Shown: one piece after another, positions 7,509 through 52,995 of the stretch | Layout of the letters: each line of letters opens with the position of its first letter | Numbering within the stretch: position 1 is the first letter of the stretch | Translations under genes and position numbers: made by a program | The notes under the pieces: generated by a model | What the model saw: only the letters and a program-made list of their open reading frames with translations | Databases searched by the model: none | What the model was told of the DNA's origin: nothing | Assembly (NCBI GenBank): GCA_049275655.1 | Contig: JBASUY010000020.1 | Coordinates: 2,651-66,650, forward strand | Direction of reading: 5' to 3' | DNA length: 64,000 bases | DNA from: Candidatus Omnitrophota bacterium | GTDB lineage: Bacteria; Omnitrophota; Gorgyraeia; Gygaellales; Profunditerraquicolaceae

Positions 7509-7535
7509 TTATAAATAAAAAAAAATTCTTGTCAA
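7507..7535 (-). promoter_or_regulatory. sigma70-type promoter of groESL
   Basis: On the minus strand: TTGACA (7535..7530), 17-nt spacer, ATAATT (7512..7507). Immediately followed by CIRCE. Confidence 0.6.
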
Positions 7536-7546
7536 GTATTTTTTTA

Positions 7547-12051: not shown

Positions 12052-12117
12052 AAAAAGCTTATTTTTTATTCATCTTAAAAATAAAATAGAGGATAGTTTC
12101 TCTCGTGGAGGATTTAG

Positions 12118-32417: not shown

Positions 32418-33194
32418 TTATTTCTGTTCATCTTTAACCTTTAATTTAAAAATCTCTCTTGCCTTCAGAAACAGCCCTTTTTGGTCTAAGGCGTTATAAA
32501 ACTTACTCTCATAAACCAAAGAGATATCTTTCCTCTCCTCAGATACTATGATAATTAAAGCATCCGTCTCCTCGCTTAAACCTAAGGCTGCACGGTGCCT
32601 AGTGCCAAATATACGGTTTAAATCCTGAGATTGTGCTAAAGGGAAAAAGCAACCAGCACTTAGAATCCGTCCGTTTTGAACAATGATTCCTCCGTCGTGA
32701 ATAGGATTATTAGGGGTAAATATTGCTTGGATCAGCTCCGAGGATACCCTTGAGTCAATCATAACTCCGCTTTGGGCAAAAGCATTAAGGGGATCACTTT
32801 TTTCTATGGCTATTAAAGCCCCTATTTTTTCACGCGCTAAAGATTCCACTGCTATGCTTATTTCTTTTAACATATAATCTAACTCTTCGTCGCGAAGTTG
32901 CGCCGTAAAAATATGCCTCTGCCCAAGCCGCGCAAGGCCCCTTCTTATCTCCGGGTGAAATATGATAAGAACCGCAATAACGGAAGTAGCAAAAAAGTTC
33001 TTAAATATCCAATCCAACCTAGTAAGCCCCAGCCTTTGAAATACAAAGAAAGAGACTAAGACAATCGCTATTCCCCGGACAACTTGAATAGCACGTGTTC
33101 CTTCAAAGAAGAGTATTATCTGGTAAATTACAAACCAAAGAATCGCTATCTCAAGTAATGTTTTCCAATGGACAAAAGCTACTGATATGCTCAT
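32418..33194 (-). CDS. cdaA: Diadenylate cyclase (membrane-anchored CdaA type)
   Basis: N-terminal TM helices plus a DAC domain (DGA..I, GTRHRAALG motifs). Confidence 0.85.
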   Translation of the reverse strand: MSISVAFVHWKTLLEIAILWFVIYQIILFFEGTRAIQVVRGIAIVLVSFFVFQRLGLTRLDWIFKNFFATSVIAVLIIFHPEIRRGLARLGQRHIFTAQLRDEELDYMLKEISIAVESLAREKIGALIAIEKSDPLNAFAQSGVMIDSRVSSELIQAIFTPNNPIHDGGIIVQNGRILSAGCFFPLAQSQDLNRIFGTRHRAALGLSEETDALIIIVSEERKDISLVYESKFYNALDQKGLFLKAREIFKLKVKDEQK

Positions 33195-34381
33195 GATATT
33201 AAACTATCAACTACTTTTAAGGCTTCCTTTGTTTCCTTAACATTGTGTACCCTAAAAATAGCCGCTCCGTTCATTCTTGCAACCGCACAAGAAGCAATTG
33301 TCCCAAATAGCCTTCTATTTGGTTTAACCTTTAATATACGCCCAATAAAAGACTTTCTTGAAAGGCCTATCATTATCGGCATACCTAAGCCTTTAAACTC
33401 TGAAAGCCTCTTGATTATTTCAAGGTTATGAGGCAATGTTTTACCAAAACCAATCCCAGGATCAATAATAATCCTATTTGGCGCTATGCCGTGTTGCAAG
33501 GCCTTGGATACCGCTAAACTTAAATAAGAATACAGGTCATCCATCAAAGAAGCATAAACAGGGTTTTTCTGCATTACCCTCGGGTTTTTAAGCATATGCA
33601 TAATTATAATGCCGGATTTATATTTTGCCGCTACCTTTGCCATCTTATGGTCCCTTAATCCTGAGATATCATTAACAATGCTTGCTCCGTTCTCTAAGGC
33701 AATCTTTGCTATCTGCGGCTTATAGGTATCAATAGATATGGGGATTTTAATTTTTTTACTTAAAGCCTTTATTATTGGGATTACCCGCTCCTCTTCTTCT
33801 TTTAAGCTTATCCTTCTTGCCCCCGGGCGCGTAGATTCTCCGCCAATATCAATAATGTCTGCTCCGTCCTTCGCTAAACTCAAAGCGTATTCTACTATTC
33901 TTTCTTTTTTTAAGCCAAGCAAGCCGTCACCACTAAAAGAATCCTCTGTAATATTTACTATGCCCATTATGCAAGAACGCTTCCCCAAATTAAGCGTATG
34001 TTTGCCGGCTACAAAACAAAAGGCCTCCTTATCATTGTTGCTTAAGGCAGAGTCTAATTCCTTAGCAATTGATTGCAAGTTAAATGACTGCTTATTAAGT
34101 TTTGCTATCAAGCGATTGTAATGAGAGTGATTCCCCATAAGAAGGCAATCAGTCTTCTTTATTCTACCGGTAATAATATCTTTTGCTAAAGCTGCCTCTG
34201 CCCCTAAAGAGAGCATCTGCTGCTTGATGATATTTGCCTGAATAGCGCTAAGGCCTTTAATCTTAACTAAAGAATGTTGCGCCTTAGGAAGCATGAGTTT
34301 TATTCCATTAGGGTCAACCCCTATATCATTCATAGCCTTAAATAATTCTTTAGCTTTAAATAGATTTAAAACTCTCATCAT
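33191..34381 (-). CDS. folP: Dihydropteroate synthase with ~115-aa N-terminal extension
   Basis: The C-terminal ~280 aa is a pterin-binding DHPS (GIVNITEDSFSGDG, DIGGESTRPG). The N-terminal extension has no recognisable motif. Confidence 0.8.
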   Translation of the reverse strand: MMRVLNLFKAKELFKAMNDIGVDPNGIKLMLPKAQHSLVKIKGLSAIQANIIKQQMLSLGAEAALAKDIITGRIKKTDCLLMGNHSHYNRLIAKLNKQSFNLQSIAKELDSALSNNDKEAFCFVAGKHTLNLGKRSCIMGIVNITEDSFSGDGLLGLKKERIVEYALSLAKDGADIIDIGGESTRPGARRISLKEEEERVIPIIKALSKKIKIPISIDTYKPQIAKIALENGASIVNDISGLRDHKMAKVAAKYKSGIIIMHMLKNPRVMQKNPVYASLMDDLYSYLSLAVSKALQHGIAPNRIIIDPGIGFGKTLPHNLEIIKRLSEFKGLGMPIMIGLSRKSFIGRILKVKPNRRLFGTIASCAVARMNGAAIFRVHNVKETKEALKVVDSLIS

Positions 34382-34384: not shown

Positions 34385-36232
34385 TTAAGAGGATGATTGC
34401 TCTTCTTTTTTTATGCCAAGCATCTCCTTAACCACTTCGCCGTCTAATACTTCTTTTTCAAGGAGGGCGTCTGTTAAAATTTTAAGTTTATCTAAATTCT
34501 CTTCCAATAAAGCCTTGGCTTGATTGTAAGCCTCATCAACAATCTTTCTTACCTCTTCGTCTATAAGCTTGGCTGTCTCTTCGCTATAATTTCTCTCTTC
34601 GGTTATATCTTTTCCAAGAAAGACCAATCCTCCTCTTTTGCCTAAAGTAATGTTGCCTAATCTCTCTGACATTCCGAATTGCGTAACCATTCTACGCGCC
34701 ATACTTGTAGCCTGTTCAAGGTCATTTTGTGCGCCTGTGGTTACCTCTTTTAGGTTTATCTCTTCTGATGCCCTTCCGCCTAACATAAGGGATATCTCAG
34801 AGATTAGTTCTCTCTTAGTCCAATAATGCCTATCTTCTAAAGGGGGCGTAAATGTATAGCCACCTGCCAGCCCCCGAGGTATAATTGATACTTTTTTTAA
34901 GGGGTTGACATCCGGAATAAGCAGGGAGAGCAAGGCATGCCCTGATTCATGCAAGGCGGTAATCTCCTTCTCCTTCTTTGACATTATATGGCTTTTCTTC
35001 TCCGGCCCCATAAGGACCCTTTCAACTGATTTATCAAAGTCTATCTCTTCAACCTCCTCCTTACTATTCCTTGCGGCTAAAAGGGCTGCTTCGTTGCAAA
35101 GGTTAGCTAAATCAGCACCGGAAAACCCAGGGGTCTGCGAAGCGATGGATTTTAAGTTGACGGAAGTTGCGAGCTTAATTTTACGCGTATGAACCTTTAG
35201 TATCTCTTCTCTTCCTTTGATATCCGGAAGGTTGACAATTATATTACGGTCAAATCTCCCCGGACGAAGCAAAGCAGGATCTAGGGTATCCGGACGGTTG
35301 GTAGCCGCTATAAGAATTAATCCTTGTTGGGTATCAAAGCCATCCATCTCAACTAAAAGGGCGTTTAATGTCTGCTCCCGCTCATCATGCCCTCCGCCTA
35401 TCCCTGAAAAACGAAGGCGGCCAACAGCATCAATCTCGTCAATAAAAATTATAGCCCCTTTACCTGATGCCTTTCCTGCTCTTCTGCCTTGGTCAAATAA
35501 ATCCCTAACCCTACTTGCGCCTACCCCTACAAACATCTCCACAAAATCCGACCCACTAATAGAAAAAAATGGAACCCCGGCTTCTCCTGCTACTGCCTTA
35601 GCTATCAATGTTTTTCCACACCCAGGCGGGCCTACTAATAAGACTCCTTTGGGTATTTTTCCGCCTAACTTTTGAAAACGTTTAGGGTCTTTTAAGAATT
35701 CTATAACCTCCCTTAATTCTTCTTTTGCCTCATCTACTCCGGCTACATCGTTAAATGTGACTTTCTCCATACCACTATGTATCTTAGGGGTGACTTTCCC
35801 AAAACCCATTATCCTGCTGCCTAATTGTTCGCCTCGAGCAGCCATCATCCACCAAAAGAATATAAGCAAGAGTATCGGGCCTAAGTTAAATAATAAGGCT
35901 GTCCAGAATGTACGCGCCGGCTTAACATCAAAATCCTTTAAGTTATTTCTCATAAGATTGAGAAGCTCAGGGTCATTATCCGGAATGTGCACTAAAAAGG
36001 AAGACTTATCCTGCAAGGTCCCTTGAATAATGCTCTCCCTTTTAACCGCGGATTTAATCTTTTCAGGATGTTCCTTAAGTAGAGCATAAAACTCTCCATA
36101 AGTCATCTCCTTAAAGATTCCGCCGGCAGGGATATTTATAGAATTTATGATTATAAAGGTAAGGATAATAGCTATTATCCAACCTAAGGAAAAGCGCCTA
36201 TTATTAACTTTTCTCTTTTTATTCTTAGCCAT
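34385..36232 (-). CDS. ftsH: ATP-dependent zinc metalloprotease FtsH
   Basis: 615 aa. Two TM helices, AAA+ Walker A GPPGCGKT, second region of homology, and the HESGH zinc motif. Confidence 0.95.
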
Positions 36233-36330
36233 CTCTATCCTTTCTATAAAATAATATTATAATGAATTTGAGGAGATATTATATATTTAAATAGCTATAA
36301 AATCAAGCGTTTATCAAACTTTTATGAAAG

Positions 36331-37350
36331 TTATCTTAAATAAAAAAGAAGGGTTTTTTCTTTCTTTTTTACCGATAGGCCTTTAGGCAAATCAACGATG
36401 GATTCAACCGGGCGAAAAAAGATTAAATCCTCAACTTCTTGGATATGCTTAAAGGTTACCCTGCGGGTATCTCCCTGAAGCGCTCTTATGGCTTCTCTTA
36501 TCCTAAAACGCAAAGCTGAATGATGGAGGCTATAAAGAGACTTAAGGCTTAGCCTTGTTTTATTCCCTTTTAGAAGATGGCGCATGGAAGACTTAAGGTA
36601 ATCATAATCACTCCCTGCGCTTAACCCGAGGTTAAAGAGGGCCTCTTTAATATTTTTATTGTACCTTTTTTCTAAATAAGGAAGCAGTAATAGCCTTATT
36701 CTGTTTCTAAAATAAATTTTGCTACGGTTAGATTTATCTATGCAAAATTTGATTCTGTTTCTCTTTAAAAAGCTTTCAATTTCTCTTCTCTTTATCATAA
36801 GTAGAGGACGGATTACAGACACACCGCCTATCTTTCTTATCGGCACTATTCCTGCTAACCCTTCTAAGCCACTGCCCCTAATAAGGCGCATTAACACCGT
36901 CTCTGCTTGGTCATTAAAATTATGCGCGGTAGCTATTTTATTGGCGTTAATCTTTTTTGCTAAAGTTAAGAAAAATCCAAATCGAGCGTTTCTAGCCTTT
37001 TCTTCTACGGAAAATTTTCCGGGAAGCTTTTTTATATCTATGCGCCTTAAGGTAAACGGGACATTTAATCTCTTGGCTAAAGTTTTTACAAAAACTGCTT
37101 CTTTTTTTGAAACCTCTCTTAAGGCATGATCTAAATGGGCAATATGAAGCTTAAAATTTAAAGGTTTTTTAAGATGGTTTAAAATATAGGCTAATGCTAC
37201 TGAATCAGCCCCTCCTGAGACGCCGAGTATTACTATCTCTTTGGGTTTAATTAAGTTATGCCTTTTAATGATTGCTTTTACTTTTTCTACAATCTTTAAA
37301 TCATCTATCAACATAGGGCAAAAAGAGGATTTTTTCTCCTCCTTTAACAA
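36331..37350 (-). CDS. tilS: tRNA(Ile)-lysidine synthetase
   Basis: PP-loop SGGADS in VSGGADSVALAYIL. The true start may be the internal MLIDDL at about 37314. Confidence 0.85.
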   Translation of the reverse strand: MLKEEKKSSFCPMLIDDLKIVEKVKAIIKRHNLIKPKEIVILGVSGGADSVALAYILNHLKKPLNFKLHIAHLDHALREVSKKEAVFVKTLAKRLNVPFTLRRIDIKKLPGKFSVEEKARNARFGFFLTLAKKINANKIATAHNFNDQAETVLMRLIRGSGLEGLAGIVPIRKIGGVSVIRPLLMIKRREIESFLKRNRIKFCIDKSNRSKIYFRNRIRLLLLPYLEKRYNKNIKEALFNLGLSAGSDYDYLKSSMRHLLKGNKTRLSLKSLYSLHHSALRFRIREAIRALQGDTRRVTFKHIQEVEDLIFFRPVESIVDLPKGLSVKKKEKTLLFYLR

Positions 37351-37377
37351 AGGTAGGTATTTTTAGGTGTCATTGAG

Positions 37378-37454
37378 TTGGTGGCGGCGACTGGATTTAA
37401 ACCAGTGACAAATCGGGTATGAGCCGACTACTCTATCAGGCTGAGTTACGCCGC
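37378..37454 (-). tRNA. tRNA with CAU anticodon (elongator Met or Ile2/lysidine tRNA), CCA encoded
   Basis: Acceptor GGCGGCG/CGCCGCC with a G1-C72 pair, so not an initiator. Anticodon loop CTCATAC. D-loop AGCCTGATA lacks GG. T-loop TTTAAAT has U at position 56. Confidence 0.75.
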
Positions 37455-37463
37455 CAAAAAAGA

Positions 37464-37844
37464 TTAAAAGAGCTTTCTTATAAACAAAACATAGCCTATT
37501 AAAGCCGCATTTATACAGGTTATCACTACTACCCCTGCGGCGATATCCTTTACAAGGCGTACTTTTGTATTATATTTTTCTGCGATAGTGTCCATCATAA
37601 TCTCTATTGCAGTATTAAGTATCTCTGCCACGAAAACTAAGGTAATCGTAATAGAAAGGGCCATTAATTCAATACCTTTAAGGTTAAGATAAAATCCTAA
37701 AACCATAGCCATAAGCCCTATTAAAAAGATTAGACGCATATTCCTATGATAAAGGAATAGATAAGCAATGCCCCTGATAGCAATTAACAAGTTCTTACCA
37801 AAACCCCTTAATTTAAAGATATCCCTTATAAGCCTATTCTTCAA
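37464..37844 (-). CDS. dgkA: Diacylglycerol kinase / undecaprenol kinase family
   Basis: 126 aa three-TM protein with DgkA-like motifs. Confidence 0.75.
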   Translation of the reverse strand: MKNRLIRDIFKLRGFGKNLLIAIRGIAYLFLYHRNMRLIFLIGLMAMVLGFYLNLKGIELMALSITITLVFVAEILNTAIEIMMDTIAEKYNTKVRLVKDIAAGVVVITCINAALIGYVLFIRKLF

Positions 37845-37847
37845 TTT

Positions 37848-38636
37848 TTACCGCCTCCTGTATGCTTCCAAAAACTTATCGCAATAAATATGCTTATTTA
37901 AGATTAAATCAGTAGTTATCGCCATATCCATCAACTCGCTGTCTAAAGGGTCAAGTATCGCTGCGTCTAAACCAAAGGCCATAGCCATGGCTAAAAAGGT
38001 ACGGTTAATTATTGGCCTGTTTAATGCGCCCTGAGAAACATTACTTAATCCTATTATAGTATTAGGGGCTGGGTCTGCAATTAATTTAAACTCTCTTATA
38101 GATTCTAATATATCCTTTTCTTGCCCTTGCGCTATATTAACCGGCATAACTATCGGGTCAAGATATAATTCATCCGTAGAAAAATTATTTTCAATACAAT
38201 AAGAGACTATCTGCGCTGCTAATTCTAAACGCTGGTCTTTAGTTTGAGGTATTCCGTCTGCGCTTATGGTCAGGGCTATTAACTTAGCTTTGTTTTCCTT
38301 AGCCAAAGGCACTAATTGGTTAAGTTTATCTAAATCCGCTGTAGTAGAATTTATGATTGCGTTTTCTTTAACCAGTTTAAGCGCTTCTTTAATTACCTCT
38401 ACCTTGCTTGAATCAATGCAAATAGCCTTATCAGTAACTTCTTGAATAGTTTTAATTAGCCAAAGGGTATCTTTAATTGGGTCTTTTGAGGCAGGACCAC
38501 AATTTACATCTAATGCGTCTGCTCCGGCTTTAATCTGATTTAAAGCAGAGTCCTGAATAACTTGCTTATCTTTTTCGGCTACAGCCTTGCCTATCTTCCC
38601 GTACATCCCGTTGATTAACTCTCCGATAATAAGCAT
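37848..38636 (-). CDS. acsE: Methyltetrahydrofolate:corrinoid iron-sulfur protein methyltransferase (pterin-binding, AcsE/MeTr)
   Basis: 262 aa. MLIIGELINGM...NCGP...INSTT...GLSNVSQG...NRTFLAMAMAFGLDAAI is collinear with the Moorella AcsE pattern. Confidence 0.8.
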   Translation of the reverse strand: MLIIGELINGMYGKIGKAVAEKDKQVIQDSALNQIKAGADALDVNCGPASKDPIKDTLWLIKTIQEVTDKAICIDSSKVEVIKEALKLVKENAIINSTTADLDKLNQLVPLAKENKAKLIALTISADGIPQTKDQRLELAAQIVSYCIENNFSTDELYLDPIVMPVNIAQGQEKDILESIREFKLIADPAPNTIIGLSNVSQGALNRPIINRTFLAMAMAFGLDAAILDPLDSELMDMAITTDLILNKHIYCDKFLEAYRRR

Positions 38637-38660
38637 CCTTGATCTCCCTTTAAAAGACTC

Positions 38661-39596
38661 TTAAGAAAAGAGGCTATCTATATACCTTTCGATTTCTTTT
38701 ACTGCCGTAGGATGGCGCATTACTAATAGATTAGCTCCTGCCTGCACTAAAGCAAGGACAGTTAGAATCTCCCAGATTATCCCTTGCCTTACATCCTCTG
38801 CTTTTGCCTCTTTAGCCCTCCAAGCCTCTTGCCCTGCCAAACAAAGAAAAGGGCTAAAAAGTGTTTTATCTCCTGACAGAGCAGCTAAACGCGCCCTCTC
38901 CATAATAGAATAAGCATATTCTAAGCCATACCCTAAAGCGCCTATAGTAGGGTCAATAACTATCCTCTCTAAAGGCATCCCCATATCTGAAATTAGGATA
39001 TTAAGTTGTTTAGCGATATTAATATCAATAGGTGATTCTGCGATAAGGCTATGGCCTCCTGCCAATGCGCCTGCTGTTACTGCCTTATAGTTATTTTGGG
39101 TTGCGTTACCGATTAAACACCGCTCATTTTTTGCTGCCTCGCTACAGGCAGGCAAAAGGATATTATCCTTTTCATCATCTCCGCAGCCGAGAATAATCAA
39201 AGGCAAATCAAATTTGCGTAAAAAATCTTTAACAAGGTTAGCTTCCTCTGAAGGAGATTTATCTTCAAACTCAGGATGCGCGCCTTTTAGCCTTAGGCAG
39301 ATAATCTTAGCATTATATTCTTTAATACATTTATCTGCCCACAAAAAAGGATCAGATAAAACATCGCCAAAAGCTTTGGTTAATTCTTCCGGCCAATCTT
39401 TAGGATAAGTATCCCATACTTCAAAGATAGGGTATGGTTTATTAGGGATAACACCCTCTTTAAAAAGCAAAGGCAAAGAACGCTCCCCTCCTATCTTAAC
39501 CTTAAAAGCGCGGCTGCCCCCTTCTTCTTTGGTTGCTCCGATAGTTATCTCCGAGACAGATCCACTCCATTTTTCATGCATTAATTGAATCGCCAT
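38661..39596 (-). CDS. acsD: Corrinoid iron-sulfur protein small subunit (AcsD / CFeSP delta)
   Basis: 311 aa. LGNATQNNYK, SPIDINIAKQLNIL, VIDPTIGALGYGLEYAYSIMER and WRAKEA match AcsD closely. Confidence 0.8.
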   Translation of the reverse strand: MAIQLMHEKWSGSVSEITIGATKEEGGSRAFKVKIGGERSLPLLFKEGVIPNKPYPIFEVWDTYPKDWPEELTKAFGDVLSDPFLWADKCIKEYNAKIICLRLKGAHPEFEDKSPSEEANLVKDFLRKFDLPLIILGCGDDEKDNILLPACSEAAKNERCLIGNATQNNYKAVTAGALAGGHSLIAESPIDINIAKQLNILISDMGMPLERIVIDPTIGALGYGLEYAYSIMERARLAALSGDKTLFSPFLCLAGQEAWRAKEAKAEDVRQGIIWEILTVLALVQAGANLLVMRHPTAVKEIERYIDSLFS

Positions 39597-39638
39597 ACAA
39601 CTCCTCTAAACTTCATTTTAGCAATAAATTTATCTTAA

Positions 39639-41231
39639 TCAATTGTTTTTTATGCTGGGGAATCTGCCTAAATCCGTATGAGGAAAAAATAATGCCGCCA
39701 TGTATTCATTCATATATTCCGCGTCAGTAGAAAGGTCAAAATAAGTTATCTGGCGCGCTAATTCTTCTGCTCTCTTTAGCTTTTCAGCCGATAGTAGCAC
39801 TTCTTTGGCCCCGGCTAAAGCGCTATTACCTAAAAAAGAAAAAATACTTCTGTCGGCATCCGGTAAAAGCCCTATGGCTATAGCGCTATCAATATCCAAA
39901 GATGTTCCAAACCCTCCTGAAATAAAAATATTCTCTAAATCAGTTACCTTAAAATTCATATGCTTTAGGAGTATGGATGCGGCAGAGTAAATAGCTGCCT
40001 TAGCGCGTTTTAAATTATCTAAATCCGCTTCGCTGACCGTTATCTCTTCTTTTGTCAATGAATCTTCTTTAAAACAGACTATAAATTCCTTGCCAAAGTC
40101 AGAATTCCTTATTCTCTTATCCTCTTTAATAATCTTACCCCCCTTATCAATTATTCCGCAAGCAAGCATGTTGCGCAAGAGGCTTATGTATCCTGACCCG
40201 CAAATTCCTAATGGTTGCGCTCCCCCAATAACTTTATAATCAATAGATAAGTTTTTTGGGTCTATCGTTACCTTTTCTATTGCCCCCGGCAATGCGCGCA
40301 TTCCATTTTTTAATCCGCTACCCTCAAAAGCAGGCCCTGCAGAAGCAGCAGAGGAAACAATAAACTCTTCATTGCCTAAAGCTATCTCTCCATTAGTCCC
40401 TATATCTATAAGCATACTAATCCCCTTTTTCATATAAAGCCCGCTGGATAGTATCCCGGCGACAGTATCCCCTCCTACATAGCTGGCTACTGCCGGGATA
40501 GAATAAATAACCCCGGAAGGGTTAATATCTATGCCTATCTCTTTAGCCTTTAAAGAAGGAAGGTTATCTTTAAGAGGGTCAAAAGAGTCCCTACGTATAT
40601 AGGCAGGATTCTTTTTAAGTAGAAGATGAATCATTGTAGTATTCCCTGCACAAACCATAAAATCAACATCTTTAATATTCACCTTATTCTCTAAGGCCAA
40701 GGCTCGTATTAATTGATTAATAGTAAAAACAACTGCCCTTTGAAGCTTATCTAAGCCATCGCTTCCTGTAGCGTATATTATGCGCGTGATTATATCCGCA
40801 CCAAAAGAAGCCTGCCTATTATAACTTGTTTTAACCCCTAAAGAGCTCTTTTCATTAATATTGATTATTTCAGCTGAAATTGTAGTCGTCCCTATATCTA
40901 CGGCAAGCCCAAAATCTCCTGAAATATAGGTAGCACTCTCTTGGTTATCAGATAATTGAAAAAGATTATTTTCTAATTGCGGGCTATCTAACCTAGACTC
41001 TAAAGGAATATCCACATCTAAGTTGCTGTTTATAGTAGCCTGACATGCCAAGCAACTCTTCTTCCCTGAAGTTTTTCTTATAAATACCCTACATTTCCCA
41101 CACAATCCATCTCCTGCGCAAATTGAGTTAATATATATGCCGCCTGATAAAGCAGCGGAGAGTATCGTTGTCCCCTCTAAAACCTCAACGCTTTTATTAT
41201 AAGGATAAAATGTCACTTTATATTTTTTCAT
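39639..41231 (-). CDS. Corrinoid activation/regeneration protein (RACo-like): N-terminal 2Fe-2S ferredoxin + ASKHA ATPase
   Basis: 530 aa. N-terminal plant-type ferredoxin cysteines (CAGDGLCGKCRV...C), C-terminal ASKHA-fold glycine-rich segments, and conserved genomic placement between acsD and acsC. Confidence 0.65.
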   Translation of the reverse strand: MKKYKVTFYPYNKSVEVLEGTTILSAALSGGIYINSICAGDGLCGKCRVFIRKTSGKKSCLACQATINSNLDVDIPLESRLDSPQLENNLFQLSDNQESATYISGDFGLAVDIGTTTISAEIININEKSSLGVKTSYNRQASFGADIITRIIYATGSDGLDKLQRAVVFTINQLIRALALENKVNIKDVDFMVCAGNTTMIHLLLKKNPAYIRRDSFDPLKDNLPSLKAKEIGIDINPSGVIYSIPAVASYVGGDTVAGILSSGLYMKKGISMLIDIGTNGEIALGNEEFIVSSAASAGPAFEGSGLKNGMRALPGAIEKVTIDPKNLSIDYKVIGGAQPLGICGSGYISLLRNMLACGIIDKGGKIIKEDKRIRNSDFGKEFIVCFKEDSLTKEEITVSEADLDNLKRAKAAIYSAASILLKHMNFKVTDLENIFISGGFGTSLDIDSAIAIGLLPDADRSIFSFLGNSALAGAKEVLLSAEKLKRAEELARQITYFDLSTDAEYMNEYMAALFFPHTDLGRFPSIKNN

Positions 41232-41255
41232 TATATATTATGTATATGGGTATAT

Positions 41256-42584
41256 TTACAGATTTTTAAGAAAAGAAGGTATGCCTGCAGCTTCTTTTGG
41301 CCCTACGGTTATATTAAAACCTGAAGCTTCCTTTAAATCTCCACTCATCACAGAGACATAGCCGGGAATAATCAAGCAGTTATGCGAGATTAATCCCCTT
41401 ACTTTATATTTTTCAAGAGAATCAGCTATTCTCTTAGGGGTAAATTTTTCTGCTGCCCAGGCAGTTAATACGGACATCCCTTCGGTATCAATGCTTACGA
41501 TATACGAAGGGACTTTACTTGCCTCAACTTCTCCTAAGACCGTAAAATAAGAAAGAGAAAAGTTTGTGGTAACTAACACCGGAGACTTATTACTAACAGC
41601 GCCTACAGAATAAACCTTGGGCTCTATCTGTAATGGTTTTTGCGGGTCGGTATAAATATTTTGACGCAAGGTAAGCAGAGGCAATACTTCAAATACGCTA
41701 AAATTACTGATTAATACGATGCTGGCATACTTTGTAATATAAGTAGCTGCCTCCATTGCTTCCTCATAAGGCGATTTTGCCGAAACTATTACTAAAAAAG
41801 GAAATCCTAAAGAGCGTTGATTTTTTTTAAGCGCAAGCCTTCTGGCTTGGGTTAAATTCCATATATTATCAGAGATGGAGCTTCCCTTAATCTCTAATAC
41901 TATATCCTTATACCCAGACTTATTAAGCTCTCCGGCTAAGCCTGATAAGGTATCTAAGGAATCTGCAGAAACCACCAAAGAGGCTTCTATATCCTTAATT
42001 GCTTTTGCTATCGCAATTAAATCTTCTTTTCCATTATAATAGACTAACGGTTTTTTATCTTTTAAATAAGCTAAAGACCCTTCAAGGGCTTTTAAATCTT
42101 TAAAGATTATTCCTATGGCAAGTTGCGTTATATCCGAAACCAACCTGACTACCTCAATAAACCTTTGAGCGCCTCCTTTTTGCTCTACAACTATGATATT
42201 GGCTTTTAGGGTTTGGCCGACGCGCTCAAATCCCAAGGCATTTATTTTATCAACCCTGTCCTTTATTTCGTTATCCGTCAAGGAGTCCTCTAAAATAAAA
42301 CCTAAAGCACAGGGATTATGGAACTTCTCTTCGTGGCGAAAAAGAACAGTCTCCCCTCCTACTTTAAAGCTGTAATCTTTATTTTTAAGGATGATTGTTT
42401 TTATAGGCGGCTCTGATTGAGATTCAATTATATCCTTAGATTCCTTGCTTACATAAGGGCATTTATCTATAGTCGTTGACTTTTTAACTAATTGCATGGC
42501 AAAGGCAAGGCAAGTAGCAAAGCCGCATTCACGACAGTTAGTCTTTGGTAGAAGTTTATAAATATCCAAGCCTGATAAAGCCAT
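41256..42584 (-). CDS. acsC: Corrinoid iron-sulfur protein large subunit (AcsC / CFeSP gamma)
   Basis: 442 aa. N-terminal 4Fe-4S motif CRECGFATCLAFA...C with a TIM-barrel and a C-terminal B12-binding-like region. Confidence 0.8.
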   Translation of the reverse strand: MALSGLDIYKLLPKTNCRECGFATCLAFAMQLVKKSTTIDKCPYVSKESKDIIESQSEPPIKTIILKNKDYSFKVGGETVLFRHEEKFHNPCALGFILEDSLTDNEIKDRVDKINALGFERVGQTLKANIIVVEQKGGAQRFIEVVRLVSDITQLAIGIIFKDLKALEGSLAYLKDKKPLVYYNGKEDLIAIAKAIKDIEASLVVSADSLDTLSGLAGELNKSGYKDIVLEIKGSSISDNIWNLTQARRLALKKNQRSLGFPFLVIVSAKSPYEEAMEAATYITKYASIVLISNFSVFEVLPLLTLRQNIYTDPQKPLQIEPKVYSVGAVSNKSPVLVTTNFSLSYFTVLGEVEASKVPSYIVSIDTEGMSVLTAWAAEKFTPKRIADSLEKYKVRGLISHNCLIIPGYVSVMSGDLKEASGFNITVGPKEAAGIPSFLKNL

Positions 42585-42611
42585 AATAATTTTAAGTACT
42601 AATTAAAAAGG

Positions 42612-42926
42612 TTATACCTTAAATATTATTGTTAACAACAAGAAAATGAGAATCCCTGAAAAGATGTAAAAATCATAAAAATAGATAAAATCATCTATTC
42701 TCTCTTTCAAAGAAACCGGCTTTTCGGGGGGTTCTTTAGTTTTAGCTAAAGAAGAGAGGGATGACCTTCGGTACTCCTGAATCTGCTCCTTTTTAAACCT
42801 TAAAAAAACGCCTCCTACTTTATAAGCCGGGATTAACCCGGCTTGAGCAAGGTCCATAACTTCTTTTTCTGATATATTTAAAAGTATGGATACTTCCCTT
42901 ACAGTCAAAAGCTTCTCTTCGCTCAT
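42612..42926 (-). CDS. Membrane-anchored excisionase-type HTH (HTH_17) protein
   Basis: 104 aa. N-terminal LLTVREVSILLNISEKEVMDLAQAGLIPAYKVGGVFLRF is an Xis-family HTH. C-terminal FIYFYDFYIFSGILIFLLLTIIF is a TM helix. Confidence 0.55.
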   Translation of the reverse strand: MSEEKLLTVREVSILLNISEKEVMDLAQAGLIPAYKVGGVFLRFKKEQIQEYRRSSLSSLAKTKEPPEKPVSLKERIDDFIYFYDFYIFSGILIFLLLTIIFKV

Positions 42927-42937
42927 ATAGCCTTATT

Positions 42938-43441
42938 TTATTTTTCTATTTTACCCGAAGCAACCCAAGAATCAATTGCCTTCCTCTCAAACTTCCATTC
43001 ATCCCCTTCTTTATGTCCGGGGACTCTCCCGGCATTAGCCCATTCCATAATGGAATTTAAATCAACCTCAAGATATCTGGCAAGCTCATTGGCATTAAGA
43101 AAATCATGAAGCATAGAGCATCTACCTTCAAAAACCGCTCCTTCTGCTATATTTAATTTTACCGGATATATATCCCCTTCAAGTACGGCCGAAGGCAAAA
43201 GAGTGAGCCTCTCTTTAGCAGTAACCTTACCTTTTACTTTCCCACCTATAATAATATTATCCCCTATAATATTTGCATTAACAAAAGCTGTTTGCCCTAT
43301 AGTTAGATTCCCCTTTGCCTCAAGGTTACCCTCAAAATTTCCGTTAATCCTTAAATTAACCGGGTCTTTAAAGCTTAAAGTGCCCTGCATGGAGGCATCA
43401 ACATCTAAAACCTTTAGTTCTGCTTTTTTCTTAAAAGCCAT
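42938..43441 (-). CDS. Bactofilin-domain protein fused to C-terminal excisionase-type HTH
   Basis: 167 aa. Residues ~20-110 are a bactofilin beta-helical repeat (LTIGQTAFVNANIIGDNIIIGGKVKGKV...). The C-terminus LARYLEVDLNSIMEWANAGRVPGHKEGDEWKFER is an HTH_17. Confidence 0.65.
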   Translation of the reverse strand: MAFKKKAELKVLDVDASMQGTLSFKDPVNLRINGNFEGNLEAKGNLTIGQTAFVNANIIGDNIIIGGKVKGKVTAKERLTLLPSAVLEGDIYPVKLNIAEGAVFEGRCSMLHDFLNANELARYLEVDLNSIMEWANAGRVPGHKEGDEWKFERKAIDSWVASGKIEK

Positions 43442-43499
43442 CTTTACCTCCTTTAAGTTTTATTCGTTACTTAAACTTTTTTCCTCTAACCACTCTTTA

Positions 43500-43528
43500 T
43501 ATATATCAAAAAGATACAGAGATGTCAA
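43500..43528 (-). promoter_or_regulatory. sigma70-type promoter for the bactofilin-HTH / acs transcription unit
   Basis: Minus strand: TTGACA (43528..43523), 17 nt, TATATA (43505..43500). Followed by SD AAAGGAGGTAAAG and ATG at 43441. Confidence 0.5.
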
Positions 43529-43542
43529 TTTTATTTATCTTT

Positions 43543-44547
43543 CTAGCTTAAATCCATATTTAAATATAAATTAGACTGCTTCCCCTTTTTAAATAATTGA
43601 TAACCTAACCCCGCTACCATCGCCGCATTATCCATAGAATACGCCAATGGAGGAAAATAACAGGTTAAACTATTTTTTCCAGCTGCATTAAGGAATTTCT
43701 CCCTAAGCCTCTTATTGGCTACAACCCCGCCCCCCAAAAGCAAAATCCGTGACTTTTTAAGCTTACAGGCAAGAAAGGATTTTTTTATTAAAACATCAAT
43801 AACCGTATCCTGAAAAGAAGCGCAAATATCTTTTATCAAAATATCCCTCTTCTTTCTCTTCTTAGAGGTATTTTTATGCAAATAATTTAAGGCTGCGGTT
43901 TTAATTCCGCTAAAACTAAAATCAAACTTTCCCTTAGTCCCGGAGCAATTAAACTTTATGCTTTTTGGGTCCCCCTTTAAAGCAAACCGCTCAATCTCAG
44001 GCCCTCCCGGATACCCTAACCCTAAAATCTTAGCTACTTTATCAAAAGCCTCTCCGCAGGCGTCATCATAAGTTTGCCCTAAAGTGTGTATCCTATCAAA
44101 ATCTCGGATATAAAAAAGGCTCGTATGCCCGCCTGAGGCAACTAATGAAATAAAGGGGAATTTAATGTTATTCTTTCTTTGATTTAATAAATTAGCGTAA
44201 AAGTGGCTGTGTACATGATTTACCCCCAAAAGAGGTATCTTCAAACTTAAGCTAAGGGCCTTGGCAAATGAGATACCTACTAAAAGTGAGCCTGATAACC
44301 CGGGCCCGGAGGTTACGCTAATTAACCCTATATCCTTTAATTTAACGCGCGCCTCTTTTAAGGCGCTTGCTACTACCTCTGATATCGTCTCAAGCTGCAT
44401 GCGTGAGGCAATCTCAGGTATAATCCCTCCGTATTTGCTATGAAATTTTATACTGGAAGCTACCTCATTAGATAAAACCTTGCTGCCGTTACTTACCACA
44501 GCAGCAGAGGTCTCATCGCAAGAAGTCTCAATCCCCAAGACTATCAT
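43543..44547 (-). CDS. tsaD: tRNA N6-adenosine threonylcarbamoyltransferase
   Basis: MIVLGIETSCDETSAAVV is the Kae1/TsaD N-terminus. 334 aa. Confidence 0.9.
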   Translation of the reverse strand: MIVLGIETSCDETSAAVVSNGSKVLSNEVASSIKFHSKYGGIIPEIASRMQLETISEVVASALKEARVKLKDIGLISVTSGPGLSGSLLVGISFAKALSLSLKIPLLGVNHVHSHFYANLLNQRKNNIKFPFISLVASGGHTSLFYIRDFDRIHTLGQTYDDACGEAFDKVAKILGLGYPGGPEIERFALKGDPKSIKFNCSGTKGKFDFSFSGIKTAALNYLHKNTSKKRKKRDILIKDICASFQDTVIDVLIKKSFLACKLKKSRILLLGGGVVANKRLREKFLNAAGKNSLTCYFPPLAYSMDNAAMVAGLGYQLFKKGKQSNLYLNMDLS

Positions 44548-45326
44548 TTTACCAACTCCGAAATAAAAACAAACTTATAACCTTCTCTTTCGATCTTAGG
44601 CATCTCTTCTTTTAAGGCTAAAATGGTATTCTTCCGATCATGGCCAATGCCTATAGCATAGCCGTTTTTTTTAGCCTTAGATTTAAGCAATTGGATCTGT
44701 TTTTTTATGTATTCCAATTCATTTTTATTGTCGATAAAAATATCCCTTTTAGCAAAACGTAAACCGTGCCTTTTAGCCGCATCAAGGCATTTAGAGGTTG
44801 ATATAACGTAACTATCTAAAAAGAAGAGGTTGCGTTTTTTAAGCTCTTTAAAGACCACTTCCATAGTCTTTAGGCTACTTGTAGCTTTAGAACCCATATG
44901 GTTATTTACGCCCTTTACGTTTCCTACAGAATCAAGGCTTTTTAAGATAATACCCTGGATCTCTTCTTCTTGCATGGAAGTTTTAATCGTATCCTTCTCC
45001 ATTGCGTTTTTCCCCTCCGGCTCCATAGGCAGATGCAGGATGATTTCAAATCCCTGAGTAGTCAAATCTTTAGAGATTTTTTTTGAATAAGCAAGGTTGG
45101 GCAATACTGATACCGTTAAAGGCAAGTTTATCTTTTCTAAAAGGGGGATGTTATTTAAATTATAACCCCAATCGTCTAAAACAATAGCTATCCTACCTAA
45201 ACAGGCTTTCTTAGGAGGAATAATTCTTTCTTTGGGTTTTCTGACAAAAGGAATTGAAACTATAAGCAGAATAATAAAAACAAAAACAACGAGAGTTAAA
45301 AAGAGGGTATCTTTTTCTTTTGTCAA
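44544..45326 (-). CDS. Divergent polysaccharide deacetylase family protein (YibQ-like)
   Basis: N-terminal TM anchor, then IAIVLDDWGYN...LHLPME, typical of the YibQ family. Confidence 0.65.
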   Translation of the reverse strand: MTKEKDTLFLTLVVFVFIILLIVSIPFVRKPKERIIPPKKACLGRIAIVLDDWGYNLNNIPLLEKINLPLTVSVLPNLAYSKKISKDLTTQGFEIILHLPMEPEGKNAMEKDTIKTSMQEEEIQGIILKSLDSVGNVKGVNNHMGSKATSSLKTMEVVFKELKKRNLFFLDSYVISTSKCLDAAKRHGLRFAKRDIFIDNKNELEYIKKQIQLLKSKAKKNGYAIGIGHDRKNTILALKEEMPKIEREGYKFVFISELVK

Positions 45327-49776: not shown

Positions 49777-52700
49777 ATGATTAAAGAAACTAACAAAAAA
49801 CCAAAGTATCTTCTTAATAAAGAGGGCGCATTTGTAATTAAAAATTATAATTTCTCTAAGCCCTTCTCTAGTTTTTTACCCGGGATAGCCGGTAGATACG
49901 GCATACCTATGTGGGCCTTCTATGTAAACCGCGCTCAATGTATTTCAAGCTTTGGGATAAAAGATAAAGACCACGCGATACTAGAGTTCTTCCCCGCTAA
50001 TAAGGCATGGCAATCTGTTTCTACGCACGGGTTCAGGACTTTCTTAAAAGTCAGTAAAAATAATAAGGACTTTTTTTATGAGCCCTTCCATAACGGATTT
50101 ACGAATCTTTCTTATAAAATAACAAATAGGATATATATCCTGCCTTATGAATTAACTATTGAAGAAGAGAACAAAACCTTAAATCTTGTTACCAGAATTA
50201 AATATTTTAATATCCCCAATGACAACTACGCCGGATTAGCTAGGATAGTAGAACTAAAAAACCTGAATAAAAACTTAATAAAAATAGAGCTCCTTGACGG
50301 GCTGCCTCAAATTGTCCCTTATGGAACTAATAACTATTGCCTTAAAAAAATGTCGCGCACGATTGAGGCGTGGATGGGGGTTGAAAACCTTAAGAATAAC
50401 GCCCCCTTTTATAGGCTTACAGTTGACCCTGCTGACCGGCCAGAGATAGTCCACATAAAAGAAGGCAACTTTTATTTAGGTTTTAGTTCTGAAGCCAAAA
50501 AAACAAAGCTAATCAAACCTATCATTAATCCGGATAATATATTCGGCCCGATTACTGATTTTTCTTGCCCAAGGTTATTCTTAAGCAAAGATTTTTCTCC
50601 CCCGCAAAATGAAACTATACAAAGTAAAACCCCTTCTGCTTTTATATACTCTTCTTTTAGCCTAAAGCAAAATGAAAATAAAAAGCTCTACGCTCTAAGC
50701 GGCTATATGCGTAGCCTAAAAGACCTTAACAACTCCTTAAAGAGGCTCTCTTCTCCTGCCTACATTGAATCTAAAAGAATTGAAAATATGAAATTAATAA
50801 ATAGCTTACTTGAAAATGTCAGGACAAACTCATCTTCAAGAGAGTTTAACCTCTATTCTCAACAGACTTACTTAGATAATATATTACGCGGCGGGTATCC
50901 GGTTATGTTTGCGCAAAACAAGCCTTTCTATCTTTATTCGCGCAAGCACGGCGATCCTGAAAGAGATTACAATAAGTTTCAAATTTCTCCAACATACCTC
51001 TCCCAAGGCAATGGCAATTACCGGGACTTAAACCAAAACCGCAGGAACGAAGTTTGGTTTAATCCTAAGATAAAAGAAAAAGACTTACTCTCGTTATTTA
51101 ATCTTATCCAACTCGACGGATTTAACCCTTTAGTGACAAAGGGTACGCGTTTTATCTTACAGGATGCGCAAAAGATACGAACAAAACTCGCTCAATTTAC
51201 TAAAAAAGAAAACGTAGATAAAATCCTTCTTGCCTTTACAGGAAAAAGGTTTTCTCCTGGTGAGATAATTCATTTTATTGAAGATAATCAAATAAAACTA
51301 ACCTCTTCTTATGATGAGTTGTTAGATATTATTGTCTCTTGTTCCTTAGAGATAAATGAAGCAGAACATTTAGAAGGTTTTTGGATTGACCATTGGCATT
51401 ATAATTTAGACCTTCTTGATAGCTACCTTGCTATTTACCCGGAAAAAGCAAAAGAGATATTCTTTGAAAAAAGGGAATTTACCTTCTTTGATAATGACAG
51501 AGTAGTAAAACCAAGGAAAGAAAAATATATTCTTCATAATGGCCTCCCGCGTCAACTACATGCAGTTACTATAGACCTTAATAAAAAAGAGATCCTAAGC
51601 AAAAGGAAAACTGCTCCTAATATAGCGCGCACAGAGGGCGGTTTTGGGGATATTTATCAAACAACCCTCATAAATAAGCTTCTATGCCTCTTGGTTAATA
51701 AGTATGCCTCCCTTGACTCTTTTGGCGTAGGAGTTGAGATGGAATCAGATAAGCCTAATTGGTTTGATTCTTTAAATGGGCTACCTGCTATATTCGGCTC
51801 TTCCCTCTCAGAGACCTTTGAGCTAAAACGATTAGCGCTCTATATCAAAAACTCTATAAATTTAACCCCTACAGAAGGTATCTTCGTTACGGAAGAGATT
51901 TACAGGCTTTTAGAAAAATTATACGTTTTAACTAAAGAATATTTTAATAAGACACTAAGTGACTTTCAATGGTGGGATGAGACGCATTTAGCGAAAGAGT
52001 CTTATTGGTCAGATACAAAAATGGGAGTTAAGGGAAAAGAGTTAAATATACCTTCAAAGGACTTAAGCCAGATCGTTAATTTATTTATAAAGAAAATTGA
52101 TATAGGCATAGATAAGGCTTGGGATAAAAAATCCTCTGTATATAGAGGTTATTTTTTCCATGAAGTTACCAAATACGAAAGGCTAAAAGATAATTTCATA
52201 AAACCTCTATCTTTTAAGCAGATTACCTTGCCCTTATTCCTTGAGCCGCAGATGCATGGCTTACGCCTTGCAGAAAACCAAGCTAAAGCTAAAGCCCTAT
52301 ATAAAGGGGTAAAAAGAAGCGCTCTCTTTGATAAAAAACTATCTATGTATAAAGTAACTGCTTCGCTTAAACCTATGCCTGAGGAGATTGGTAGATGCAG
52401 GGTATTCCCTTCCGGCTGGCTTGAGAATGAATCTGTATGGCTACATATGGAGTATAAGTATCTCCTTGAATTACTAAAACAAGGGCTTTATGAAGAGTTT
52501 TACCAGGATTTTAAAAAAGCCCTTATACCTTTTCAGGACCCAAAAAGATACGGGCGAAGCATCCTTGAAAACTCTTCTTTCCTTGTAAGTAGCGCTTTCC
52601 CTGATAAAACTTTACATGGAAATGGGTTTGTTGCCCGGCTATCCGGCTCTACAGCAGAATTTTTAGATATCTGGCTTAAGATTAACCTTGGGATAAAACC

Positions 52701-52995
52701 CTTCTTTATAACCGGTAATAATACCCTTAACCTCTGCTTTAAACCTATATTAAATGCCTGGTTATTTGATAAAAATGGAAATTATTCTTTTAATTTCTTA
52801 AGCAAGATAAAGGTTGCCTATCACAATCCTGCCAAAAAGAATACCTACGGCAAAAACTCAGCTAAAGTCCAATATATAACTTTTAAAGACAACAACGGGC
52901 TTTTAATCAAAATAAACTCAGATACAATCAAATCCCCTTACGCAGAACAAATCCGCTTAGGTAAAATCAATCAGATAGATATCCATTTAAAATAA
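49777..52995 (+). CDS. Large cytoplasmic protein, putative six-hairpin glycoside hydrolase/phosphorylase (GH94-like)
   Basis: 1072 aa, the only plus-strand gene. No Walker or nuclease motifs. Rich in W/Y/F/N/D. The N-terminal LPGIAGRYGIPMWAFYVNRAQC resembles the GH94 sNTAGGYSFYRDA segment and HGFRTF resembles cRHGLGYT. The C-terminal beta-sandwich-like tail supports a glycoside family. The family assignment is low confidence. Confidence 0.35.
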   Translation: MIKETNKKPKYLLNKEGAFVIKNYNFSKPFSSFLPGIAGRYGIPMWAFYVNRAQCISSFGIKDKDHAILEFFPANKAWQSVSTHGFRTFLKVSKNNKDFFYEPFHNGFTNLSYKITNRIYILPYELTIEEENKTLNLVTRIKYFNIPNDNYAGLARIVELKNLNKNLIKIELLDGLPQIVPYGTNNYCLKKMSRTIEAWMGVENLKNNAPFYRLTVDPADRPEIVHIKEGNFYLGFSSEAKKTKLIKPIINPDNIFGPITDFSCPRLFLSKDFSPPQNETIQSKTPSAFIYSSFSLKQNENKKLYALSGYMRSLKDLNNSLKRLSSPAYIESKRIENMKLINSLLENVRTNSSSREFNLYSQQTYLDNILRGGYPVMFAQNKPFYLYSRKHGDPERDYNKFQISPTYLSQGNGNYRDLNQNRRNEVWFNPKIKEKDLLSLFNLIQLDGFNPLVTKGTRFILQDAQKIRTKLAQFTKKENVDKILLAFTGKRFSPGEIIHFIEDNQIKLTSSYDELLDIIVSCSLEINEAEHLEGFWIDHWHYNLDLLDSYLAIYPEKAKEIFFEKREFTFFDNDRVVKPRKEKYILHNGLPRQLHAVTIDLNKKEILSKRKTAPNIARTEGGFGDIYQTTLINKLLCLLVNKYASLDSFGVGVEMESDKPNWFDSLNGLPAIFGSSLSETFELKRLALYIKNSINLTPTEGIFVTEEIYRLLEKLYVLTKEYFNKTLSDFQWWDETHLAKESYWSDTKMGVKGKELNIPSKDLSQIVNLFIKKIDIGIDKAWDKKSSVYRGYFFHEVTKYERLKDNFIKPLSFKQITLPLFLEPQMHGLRLAENQAKAKALYKGVKRSALFDKKLSMYKVTASLKPMPEEIGRCRVFPSGWLENESVWLHMEYKYLLELLKQGLYEEFYQDFKKALIPFQDPKRYGRSILENSSFLVSSAFPDKTLHGNGFVARLSGSTAEFLDIWLKINLGIKPFFITGNNTLNLCFKPILNAWLFDKNGNYSFNFLSKIKVAYHNPAKKNTYGKNSAKVQYITFKDNNGLLIKINSDTIKSPYAEQIRLGKINQIDIHLK

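Follow-up and report, generated by a model that had tools for sequence, protein, structure and literature searches.

The 64,000-nucleotide stretch of Omnitrophota DNA studied here (the window) carries genes annotated as encoding the corrinoid iron-sulfur protein (CFeSP), its methyltransferase and its reductive activator, with no CODH/ACS gene beside them. The initial annotation had left two alternatives: that CODH/ACS is encoded elsewhere, or that the CFeSP serves another corrinoid-dependent methyl transfer. Which of the two fits the locus better is the question addressed below.

Four tightly packed, collinear ORFs were found on the minus strand (42584..37848), as originally described, and these encode homologues of AcsC, RACo, AcsD and AcsE. 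The first, acsC (cfsA; 41256..42584), is predicted to encode the CFeSP large subunit of 442 amino acids; it is followed by the gene for RACo, the ATP-dependent reductive activator of the corrinoid protein (530 amino acids; 39639..41231), by acsD (cfsB; 38661..39596) for the CFeSP small subunit (311 amino acids) and by acsE (37848..38636) for the methyl-tetrahydrofolate:CFeSP methyltransferase (MeTr; 262 amino acids). The intergenic gaps are 24, 42 and 24 bp respectively. Upstream on the same strand Pfam assigned a bactofilin-HTH_17 fusion (43441..42938) and an HTH_17 protein (42926..42612), the latter ending 27 bp from acsC; downstream are dgkA (37844..37464), only 3 bp from acsE, a tRNA(CAU) (37455..37379) and tilS (37350..36331), also on the minus strand and in agreement with the earlier account of the flanks. 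The bactofilin-HTH and HTH_17 pair is also upstream of the CFeSP module in about 40 related loci. These neighbours serve as synteny anchors; we claim no functional link between them and the module. A promoter and terminator scan of positions 36200–44700 detected no terminator-like site in the gaps among the four genes, with counts of both elements near shuffle expectation; this is consistent with co-transcription of the four genes and otherwise uninformative. Elsewhere in the window are genes for aspartate kinase and homoserine dehydrogenase, and homoserine-derived amino acids would therefore be made.

The predicted AcsE contains PF00809 and matched the curated family model NF005719 (289 bits, cut-off 259), while scoring below the acetogen-type model CODH_ACS_meth NF040758, a narrow exception-type model (163 bits versus 370). 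It aligned without gaps to Moorella MeTr (2e7f_A) over 262 of 262 residues with 46% identity (E 3e-77), MeTr being a closer match than the DHPS-named structure 4o0q (6e-47) or the pterin domains of MetH (1e-25 or weaker). D75, N96, D160, N199 and R207 of the Moorella enzyme are all kept in this alignment; the first four we take, from published structures, to be the pterin-binding and N5-activating residues. The initial annotation had raised the prospect of an MtrH-, MtaB- or other non-AcsE-type enzyme; the protein is instead MeTr-like over its whole length.

AcsC scored 521 bits against NF003195 (cut-off 306) and matched Carboxydothermus hydrogenoformans CfsA (2h9a_A) at full length (residues 1–441, E 5e-121). 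The sequence predicts an N-terminal [4Fe-4S] domain (PF04060, residues 12–44) and a corrinoid-binding domain (PF03599); Cys17, Cys20, Cys25 and Cys42, presumably the ligands of the [4Fe-4S] cluster as in published structures, are present. Every one of the best AcsC matches was from Omnitrophota. AcsD, also with PF03599, scored 388 bits against NF003376 (cut-off 280) and matched Moorella 4djd_D at full length (E 6e-95), although it fell below the narrower WLP_AcsD model (233 versus a cut-off of 430).

RACo has the domains Fer2 (PF00111), Raco_middle (PF17651) and RACo_C_ter (PF14574), the last an ASKHA ATPase domain. Residues 105–527 matched residues 205–630 of 3zyy_X (E 8e-133), and Cys38, Cys44, Cys47, Cys60 and Cys63 are all within the N-terminal domain. 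Pfam found no match to the linker domain PF17650 in this protein of 530 amino acids; the linker is present in the longer RACo proteins of relatives (about 641–642 amino acids). The RACo chain in the solved CoFeSP–RACo complex 4c1n starts near the middle domain, which suggests that the linker is dispensable for CoFeSP binding. RACo scored 517 against the AcsV model (cut-off 800) and 141 against a model of RamA-type activases (cut-off 500).

Given the scores against curated family models and the full-length matches to solved proteins, the original identification of all four genes was correct. Purifying selection acts on all four: in a comparison of the window with a sister genome, dN/dS was 0.144 for acsC, 0.108 for RACo, 0.102 for acsD and 0.067 for acsE, with values of 0.03–0.16 for flanking housekeeping genes. 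The genes thus appear to form an intact CFeSP module of the bacterial Wood–Ljungdahl type, functional as judged by homology. By close homology with the characterised proteins, AcsE would transfer methyl groups between N5-methyl-tetrahydrofolate and the corrinoid, in its Co(I) state, of the AcsC/AcsD heterodimer; the resulting methyl-Co(III) CFeSP would exchange its methyl group with acetyl-CoA synthase at the Ni site; and RACo would use ATP and its [2Fe-2S] cluster to re-reduce corrinoid that has lapsed to inactive Co(II). The direction in which carbon flows through the module is likewise inferred.

The earlier statement that neither acsA/cooS nor acsB lies on either side of the module was borne out by two approaches over the window and its flanks. 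When every gene called in the window and in 10 kb past each end (about 84 kb) was annotated with Pfam, no acsB, cooS, fhs, folD or metF was revealed; and tblastn with eight Omnitrophota queries (AcsB, CooS, CooF, Fhs, FchA, FolD, MetF and a CooC-like ATPase; E ≤ 1e-3) gave no match in the window, L090, L092 or L010, the sister locus. The description of the module as a complete methyl branch end was an overstatement: the CFeSP and methyl-transfer step is encoded, but fhs, folD and metF are absent here. In relatives, those three genes adjoin cooS and acsB.

Comparison with related genomes showed how these genes are arranged in the clade. In about 48 species-level genomes the module is flanked by tsaD/bactofilin/HTH on one side and by dgkA/tilS/ftsH on the other, and acsB does not occur within 10 kb; the shared gene order is tsaD, bactofilin, HTH, CFeSP module, dgkA, tRNA, tilS, ftsH and folP. 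By comparison, about 27 more distant loci have acsB, often with cooS too, directly upstream of acsC. In a neighbour-joining tree, AcsC of the split type formed one clade nested among the acsB-adjacent types. A 222-amino-acid ORF upstream of acsC, grouped as 'acsC-like' by clustering, is LarB by BLASTP and NCBIfam; the grouping arose from a single fused ORF call.

A second conserved Omnitrophota locus contains no CFeSP gene and has the order fhs-fchA-folD-metF-cooS-cooF-oxidoreductase-acsB-TPR-polA-glgA-coaE-rho-prfA. The AcsB proteins of such CFeSP-free loci fell into over 120 clusters (identity 83% or higher), and all but one of those with a named source are labelled Omnitrophica or Omnitrophota. 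In MAG GCA_001805765.1, acsB is on contig MHGW01000044.1 and a split-type acsC on MHGW01000006.1, a link that rests on binning; both proteins also occur together in assemblies ERZ4903072, ERZ27254763, ERZ27254754 and ERZ27254845. The presence of both loci in these five assemblies indicates that the Wood–Ljungdahl genes are divided between two loci in this clade. GCA_001805765.1 and other split-type MAGs belong to Velamenicoccia, Gygaellales, and there to Profunditerraquicolaceae or UBA12090, families for which a Wood–Ljungdahl pathway is predicted by Seymour et al. (2023; PMC10066038). The source organism is itself a member of Omnitrophota, probably of Velamenicoccia/Gygaellales.

The relatives of the source genome therefore have a two-locus split. 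Since cooS and acsB of the synteny-sharing clade have a conserved locus of their own, and both loci occur in one MAG, the first alternative of the initial annotation, that CODH/ACS is encoded elsewhere, is better supported than another corrinoid-dependent role. By the example of these relatives, the source genome most likely keeps its cooS and acsB at the second locus, and the lack of CODH/ACS beside the module is probably a trait of the lineage and not a loss. Among the AcsB matches listed (the top 120 in each of two lists), none stood out as belonging to the source population, either as a many-contig Logan-only cluster or by a low-GC amino-acid composition, which is weak evidence against this reading. 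An ancestral operon of the form fhs-fchA-folD-metF-cooS-cooF-oxidoreductase-acsB-acsC-RACo-cooC-acsD-acsE would have split a single time in a large group of Omnitrophota, whose members of known taxonomy belong to the order Gygaellales/GIF10, leaving the acsC-to-acsE half between the HTH gene and dgkA and the fhs-to-acsB half upstream of the TPR gene, polA, glgA, coaE and rho. In the literature searched, we found no description of a two-locus arrangement for Omnitrophota CFeSP or acsCDE.

The window belongs to a reduced subclade of four species-level lineages, the others being L010 (from sister MAG CAZIUK01), P0002 (SRR21285879) and P0004 (JGI 3300013138). These lack the MinD/CooC-like ATPase that most relatives carry between RACo and acsD, and which may mature ACS; their RACo has lost its linker domain, and LarB and FmdE are no longer neighbours of the module. 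Such losses, with the core genes still under purifying selection, would fit a subclade that has lost CODH/ACS and in which AcsE, CFeSP and RACo pass the methyl group of methyl-tetrahydrofolate to another acceptor, most plausibly a MesB-type core methionine synthase. MesB is reported to co-occur with AcsC and AcsD, and the CFeSP has been proposed as its methyl donor (Price et al., 2021; PMC7857596); Omnitrophota lineages that have lost the Wood–Ljungdahl pathway are described by Seymour et al. (2023; PMC10066038). The aspartate kinase and homoserine dehydrogenase of the window are in keeping with such a role, as is the slightly faster divergence of the CFeSP genes in the window lineage by comparison with most flanking housekeeping genes (distance ratios of 1.15–1.36; median near 1.0), which could stem from loss of a partner. 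However, Pfam annotation of the 84 kb turned up neither mesB nor any Meth_synt_2 gene, and acsB is present in each relative that could be checked. The CooC-like gene is, moreover, also missing from the module of split-type loci beyond the reduced subclade (L016, L019, L027, L040 and L044), and one of these, L016 (UBA1562), is placed in Profunditerraquicolaceae, for which the Wood–Ljungdahl pathway is predicted (Seymour et al., 2023; PMC10066038). On balance we regard this alternative as possible but doubtful; and in the specific form that ACS was lost from the subclade and AcsC-RACo-AcsD-AcsE became a stand-alone, methyl-tetrahydrofolate-dependent corrinoid methyl carrier, for example as the methyl donor in a two-part, MetH-like methionine synthase with a MesB-type enzyme, it is unlikely.

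The absence of CODH/ACS from the locus and the loss of accessory genes relative to the rest of the clade might also be expected of a module that is decaying, as a non-functional remnant of a lost Wood–Ljungdahl pathway. This is very improbable, as the four ORFs are full length and uninterrupted by frameshifts, and they align with solved proteins from one end to the other; their key residues are intact, their dN/dS values (0.07–0.14) are the same as those of essential neighbours, and the four-gene arrangement is kept in lineages sharing just 71–76% AcsC identity. That the genes are a mislabelled corrinoid system, whether an MtrH/MtaB-type methyltransferase with small B12 proteins or HgcA-type mercury methylation, can be dismissed almost entirely: AcsC does have weak partial matches to HgcA and HgcAB-like models, but these are confined to its C-terminal domain and far under the cut-offs (59–63 bits versus 275–285; 63 versus 275 for HgcA), no hgcB adjoins the module, there is no transmembrane HgcA domain, and the MetH and RamA comparisons given above point the same way.

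The two-locus split thus remains the best explanation, and the module can be set beside known systems. The same four proteins are known from C. hydrogenoformans and Moorella thermoacetica and give full-length alignments (2h9a, 4djd, 2e7f, 3zyy and 4c1n; E 3e-77 to 8e-133), and the four-Cys [4Fe-4S] motif of AcsC and the pterin-binding and activating residues of AcsE are shared with them; the order acsC-RACo-(cooC)-acsD-acsE is common to relatives. The window module differs from these systems in several ways: acsB and cooS are missing upstream, the module does not contain a cooC-type ATPase, RACo is without the roughly 100-residue linker of the solved four-domain protein, and the proteins miss the narrow NCBIfam acetogen models (WLP_AcsD, CODH_ACS_meth and AcsV). 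Within the same phylum, Velamenicoccia and Gorgyraia have been assigned a Wood–Ljungdahl pathway (Seymour et al., 2023; PMC10066038); in the part of that study used here, the split-type MAG families have a complete or 'truncated' pathway (acsB–E, cooS present or absent, formate dehydrogenase lacking), scored by gene presence and with no mention of a two-locus arrangement. Dehalococcoides mccartyi, which has an incomplete Wood–Ljungdahl pathway and MesB, keeps acsB, acsC and acsD without acsE and metF (PMC7857596; Deobald et al., 2020; PMC7005905) and is a precedent for CFeSP in biosynthetic methyl supply instead of acetogenesis. By contrast, the window has acsE, while acsB was not seen and no mesB was present in the 84 kb examined.

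A CFeSP module without CODH/ACS nearby is therefore a largely ordinary finding in these bacteria: because the clade routinely splits its Wood–Ljungdahl genes between two housekeeping loci, a lone module in Omnitrophota is not by itself a sign of a new corrinoid pathway. Contig-level views will often show 'orphan' halves of the pathway, and the split is a useful rule to apply when annotating Omnitrophota MAGs. If the reduced subclade is truly without ACS, it would be a natural case in which CFeSP, MeTr and RACo serve a purpose other than making acetyl-CoA, and the proposed role of CFeSP as methyl donor to core methionine synthases could then be tested in vivo.

An AcsC-like protein (442 aa; 42584..41256), RACo (530 aa; 41231..39639), an AcsD-like protein (311 aa; 39596..38661) and an AcsE-like protein (262 aa; 38636..37848) are encoded in this transcription order on the minus strand, confirming the four open reading frames at 37848-42584 described in the initial annotation. 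Gaps of 24-42 bp separate the genes; 27 bp lie between the end of an upstream HTH_17 gene and the module, and 3 bp between the module and the downstream dgkA. In a simple scan the gaps contained no terminator-like site, and promoter-like matches around the module were at chance level; given the short gaps and lack of terminator-like sites within them, the four genes look co-transcribed with their neighbours.

AcsC contains FeS and CdhD domains (Pfam) and scored 521 bits against NCBIfam model NF003195 (cut-off 306); RACo has Fer2, Raco_middle and RACo_C_ter domains; AcsD scored 388 against NF003376 (cut-off 280); and AcsE has a Pterin_bind domain and scored 289 against NF005719 (cut-off 259). 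All four proteins match solved enzymes in the PDB end to end: AcsC with Carboxydothermus CfsA (2h9a, E 5e-121), AcsD with Moorella 4djd_D (E 6e-95), RACo with 3zyy (E 8e-133) and AcsE with the Moorella methyltransferase MeTr (2e7f, E 3e-77; residues 1-262 on 1-262, gapless, 46% identical). The full-length MeTr match and the NF005719 score show AcsE to be of the type first proposed, not an MtrH, MtaB or other non-AcsE methyltransferase. Residues D75, N96, D160, N199 and R207 of MeTr are kept in AcsE, as are Cys17/20/25/42 in AcsC, with roles that we take to be those in the published structures. The identification of the parts as subunits of the corrinoid iron-sulfur protein (CFeSP), MeTr and RACo is near certain. 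HgcA and RamA were rejected as identities, scoring far under the NCBIfam cut-offs. The narrow acetogen 'exception' models WLP_AcsD, CODH_ACS_meth and AcsV did not reach their cut-offs, which marks a divergent subfamily rather than another function.

To extend the window, 10 kb past each end was taken from public contigs with identical proteins. By Pfam, the called genes over the window and both extensions were housekeeping genes only (among them guaB/guaA, dnaE, groES/EL, uvrB, valS, leuA-like, aspartate kinase, homoserine dehydrogenase, threonine synthase, thyA, folP, ftsH, tilS, tsaD, gatCAB, lepA, aro genes, ruvABC and rpoD). With Omnitrophota proteins as tblastn queries, AcsB, CooS, CooF, Fhs, FchA, FolD, MetF and the CooC-like ATPase had no match in the window, the two extensions or L010, the locus of the sister genome. 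CODH/ACS is thus absent from the locus, as originally noted; the accompanying description of a 'complete methyl branch end' holds for the CFeSP step, which is all that the locus encodes, the remaining methyl branch being absent there.

Several neighbouring features were also recorded. The 1072-aa reading frame at 49777-52995 (+) has no Pfam match and is conserved next to gatC in L010 and at locus L194; it is the sole large plus-strand reading frame in the 64-kb window not merely overlapping a minus-strand gene, all other genes being on the minus strand with GC skew negative throughout. The dihydropteroate synthase FolP (33191-34381 (-), 396 aa) has an extra N-terminal region of ~135 residues that belongs to no Pfam family and is conserved in the sister genome. 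A tRNA with anticodon CAU (37379-37455 (-)), which ARAGORN calls tRNA-Met, immediately precedes tilS (36331-37350 (-)), a pairing kept in L010, and could be the tRNA-Ile2 that TilS converts to lysidine. The sister has no dgkA reading frame between acsE and this tRNA (L010:14720-14990 versus window 37464-37844); as dgkA is kept in the window, in the lineage of related protein P0002 and in many relatives, its loss in L010 was recent.

The window's own proteins were found in at least eight sequencing runs, on contigs up to 125 kb, and among the best 120 AcsC relatives (60-90% identity) the organism-named ones are almost all Candidatus Omnitrophica/Omnitrophota. In a scan covering a single genome for each GTDB species, 80 AcsC loci were retrieved together with 10 kb on either side, and their reading frames were called, clustered and named by Pfam and NCBIfam. 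Two types were evident. In the split type (~48 loci; AcsC 53-90% identical to the window's) the order is gatB, ctpB, polysaccharide deacetylase, tsaD, (MgtC), bactofilin-HTH, HTH, (LarB), (FmdE-domain), acsC, RACo, (MinD/CooC-like ATPase), acsD, acsE, dgkA, tilS, ftsH, folP, and acsB and cooS are absent within 10 kb. In the adjacent type (~27 loci; AcsC at most 52% identical) acsB is directly upstream of acsC, often preceded by folD, metF, cooS, cooF and an FAD/NAD oxidoreductase. A neighbour-joining tree of AcsC rooted on the Carboxydothermus protein places the split-type loci in a single clade nested among adjacent-type Omnitrophota loci, with the window and its sister inside it on a rather long branch; this topology fits a single split of the operon in an ancestor. 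In a third arrangement, seen in some Omnitrophota-like contigs (L077, L078, L079, L085, L088, L095 and L138), a gene for a CDP-alcohol phosphatidyltransferase, plsY and a helicase gene come directly after acsB-acsC, and RACo, acsD and acsE are located elsewhere; breakage of the operon in Omnitrophota has therefore occurred at more than one site.

A scan of metagenomes with an Omnitrophota AcsB query returned 80 loci, which were then labelled. Among these is a recurrent class lacking any CFeSP gene, with the order (Pfam) UPF0102, fhs, fchA, folD, metF, (cooC), cooS, cooF, oxidoreductase, acsB, TPR protein, polA, glgA, coaE, rho, (rpmE), prfA, prmC; it is clearest in L099, L101, L103, L107, L111, L119, L141 and L154 (GC 0.40-0.49). 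At an identity of 83% or above, AcsB of this class falls into over 120 clusters and, among the matches listed, all but one of the organism-named clusters are Omnitrophica/Omnitrophota. The metagenome-assembled genome GCA_001805765.1 (RIFCSPLOWO2_01_FULL_41_12) has both halves: a CFeSP-less acsB locus on contig MHGW01000044.1, and on MHGW01000006.1 an acsC of the split type, sharing 62% identity with the window's AcsC, preceded by an FmdE-domain gene and followed, on longer contigs with the identical protein, by a 642-aa RACo. The same AcsB and AcsC pair occurs on separate contigs in four other assemblies, ERZ4903072, ERZ27254763, ERZ27254754 and ERZ27254845. Marker tables of Seymour et al. (2023; PMC10066038) put tsaD on MHGW01000006.1 and prfA on MHGW01000044.1, in agreement with both syntenies. 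This genome is assigned to Velamenicoccia, Gygaellales, Profunditerraquicolaceae, the split-type metagenome-assembled genomes QZM4_1.bins.76, QZM4_2.bins.442, B70_G16 and UBA1562 also to Profunditerraquicolaceae, and GWF2_43_52 to UBA12090 (order Gygaellales); Seymour et al. attribute a Wood-Ljungdahl pathway, complete or truncated, to these families. Inteins with a LAGLIDADG homing endonuclease (PF14890 and PF14528 inside the CdhC/ACS domains) are present in many acsB genes of Omnitrophota, both as reading frames of 1166-1279 aa (L060, L068, L081, L084, L142, L145, L146, L158) and as proteins (P0155, P0160, P0166, P0176, P0177, P0199, P0207, P0215); for some, 'LAGLIDADG family homing endonuclease' is the sole GenBank annotation.

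Most split-type loci have LarB (nickel-pincer cofactor synthesis) and FmdE-domain genes directly upstream of acsC, and a P-loop ATPase gene that separates RACo from acsD (in L012, at 7248-7916, NF033503, 299 bits; 7913-8314; and 11677-12423, MinD/CooC-like); all three are absent from window 37848-42926. This reduced module, with a 530-aa RACo lacking linker domain PF17650, is common to four lineages: the window, L010 (90% AcsC identity), P0002 (76%) and P0004 (71%). Despite the reduction, the four genes are under purifying selection, with window-L010 dN/dS of 0.067 (acsE), 0.102 (acsD), 0.108 (RACo) and 0.144 (acsC), and 0.03-0.16 for 15 flanking genes. A relative-rate comparison found the CFeSP genes to be mildly accelerated in the window's lineage (distance ratios 1.15-1.36, against 0.92-1.04 for tsaD, gatB, ctpB, ftsH and bactofilin), a range overlapped by gatA (1.28), dgkA (1.21) and tilS (1.13). 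As the main alternative, the reduced subclade might have lost ACS, with the module feeding another methyl acceptor, most plausibly a core methionine synthase of the MesB type, for which CFeSP has been proposed as the methyl donor (Price et al., 2021; PMC7857596). We consider this unlikely: no MesB-type gene turned up in the 84 kb of window and extensions, and the missing CooC-like ATPase is weak evidence for ACS loss since it is also missing from split-type modules outside the subclade (L016, L019, L027, L040, L044).

The gene identities, and the separate cooS/acsB locus in relatives, support the earlier interpretation, and we favour an ordinary CFeSP/MeTr/RACo module partnered by CODH/ACS from a second locus; by analogy with its clade, the window's genome probably has acsB elsewhere. 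AcsE would transfer methyl groups between CH3-THF and Co(I), for exchange with the Ni site of ACS, and RACo would re-reduce Co(II) in an ATP-dependent manner; flux could run to acetyl-CoA synthesis or cleavage, between which sequence cannot tell. Our literature searches on Omnitrophota CFeSP found neither the arrangement in two loci nor the reduced module of four genes described. Partial and complete Wood-Ljungdahl pathways are already published for Omnitrophota, and the two forms vary the gene order and the accessory content rather than making up a new kind of system.
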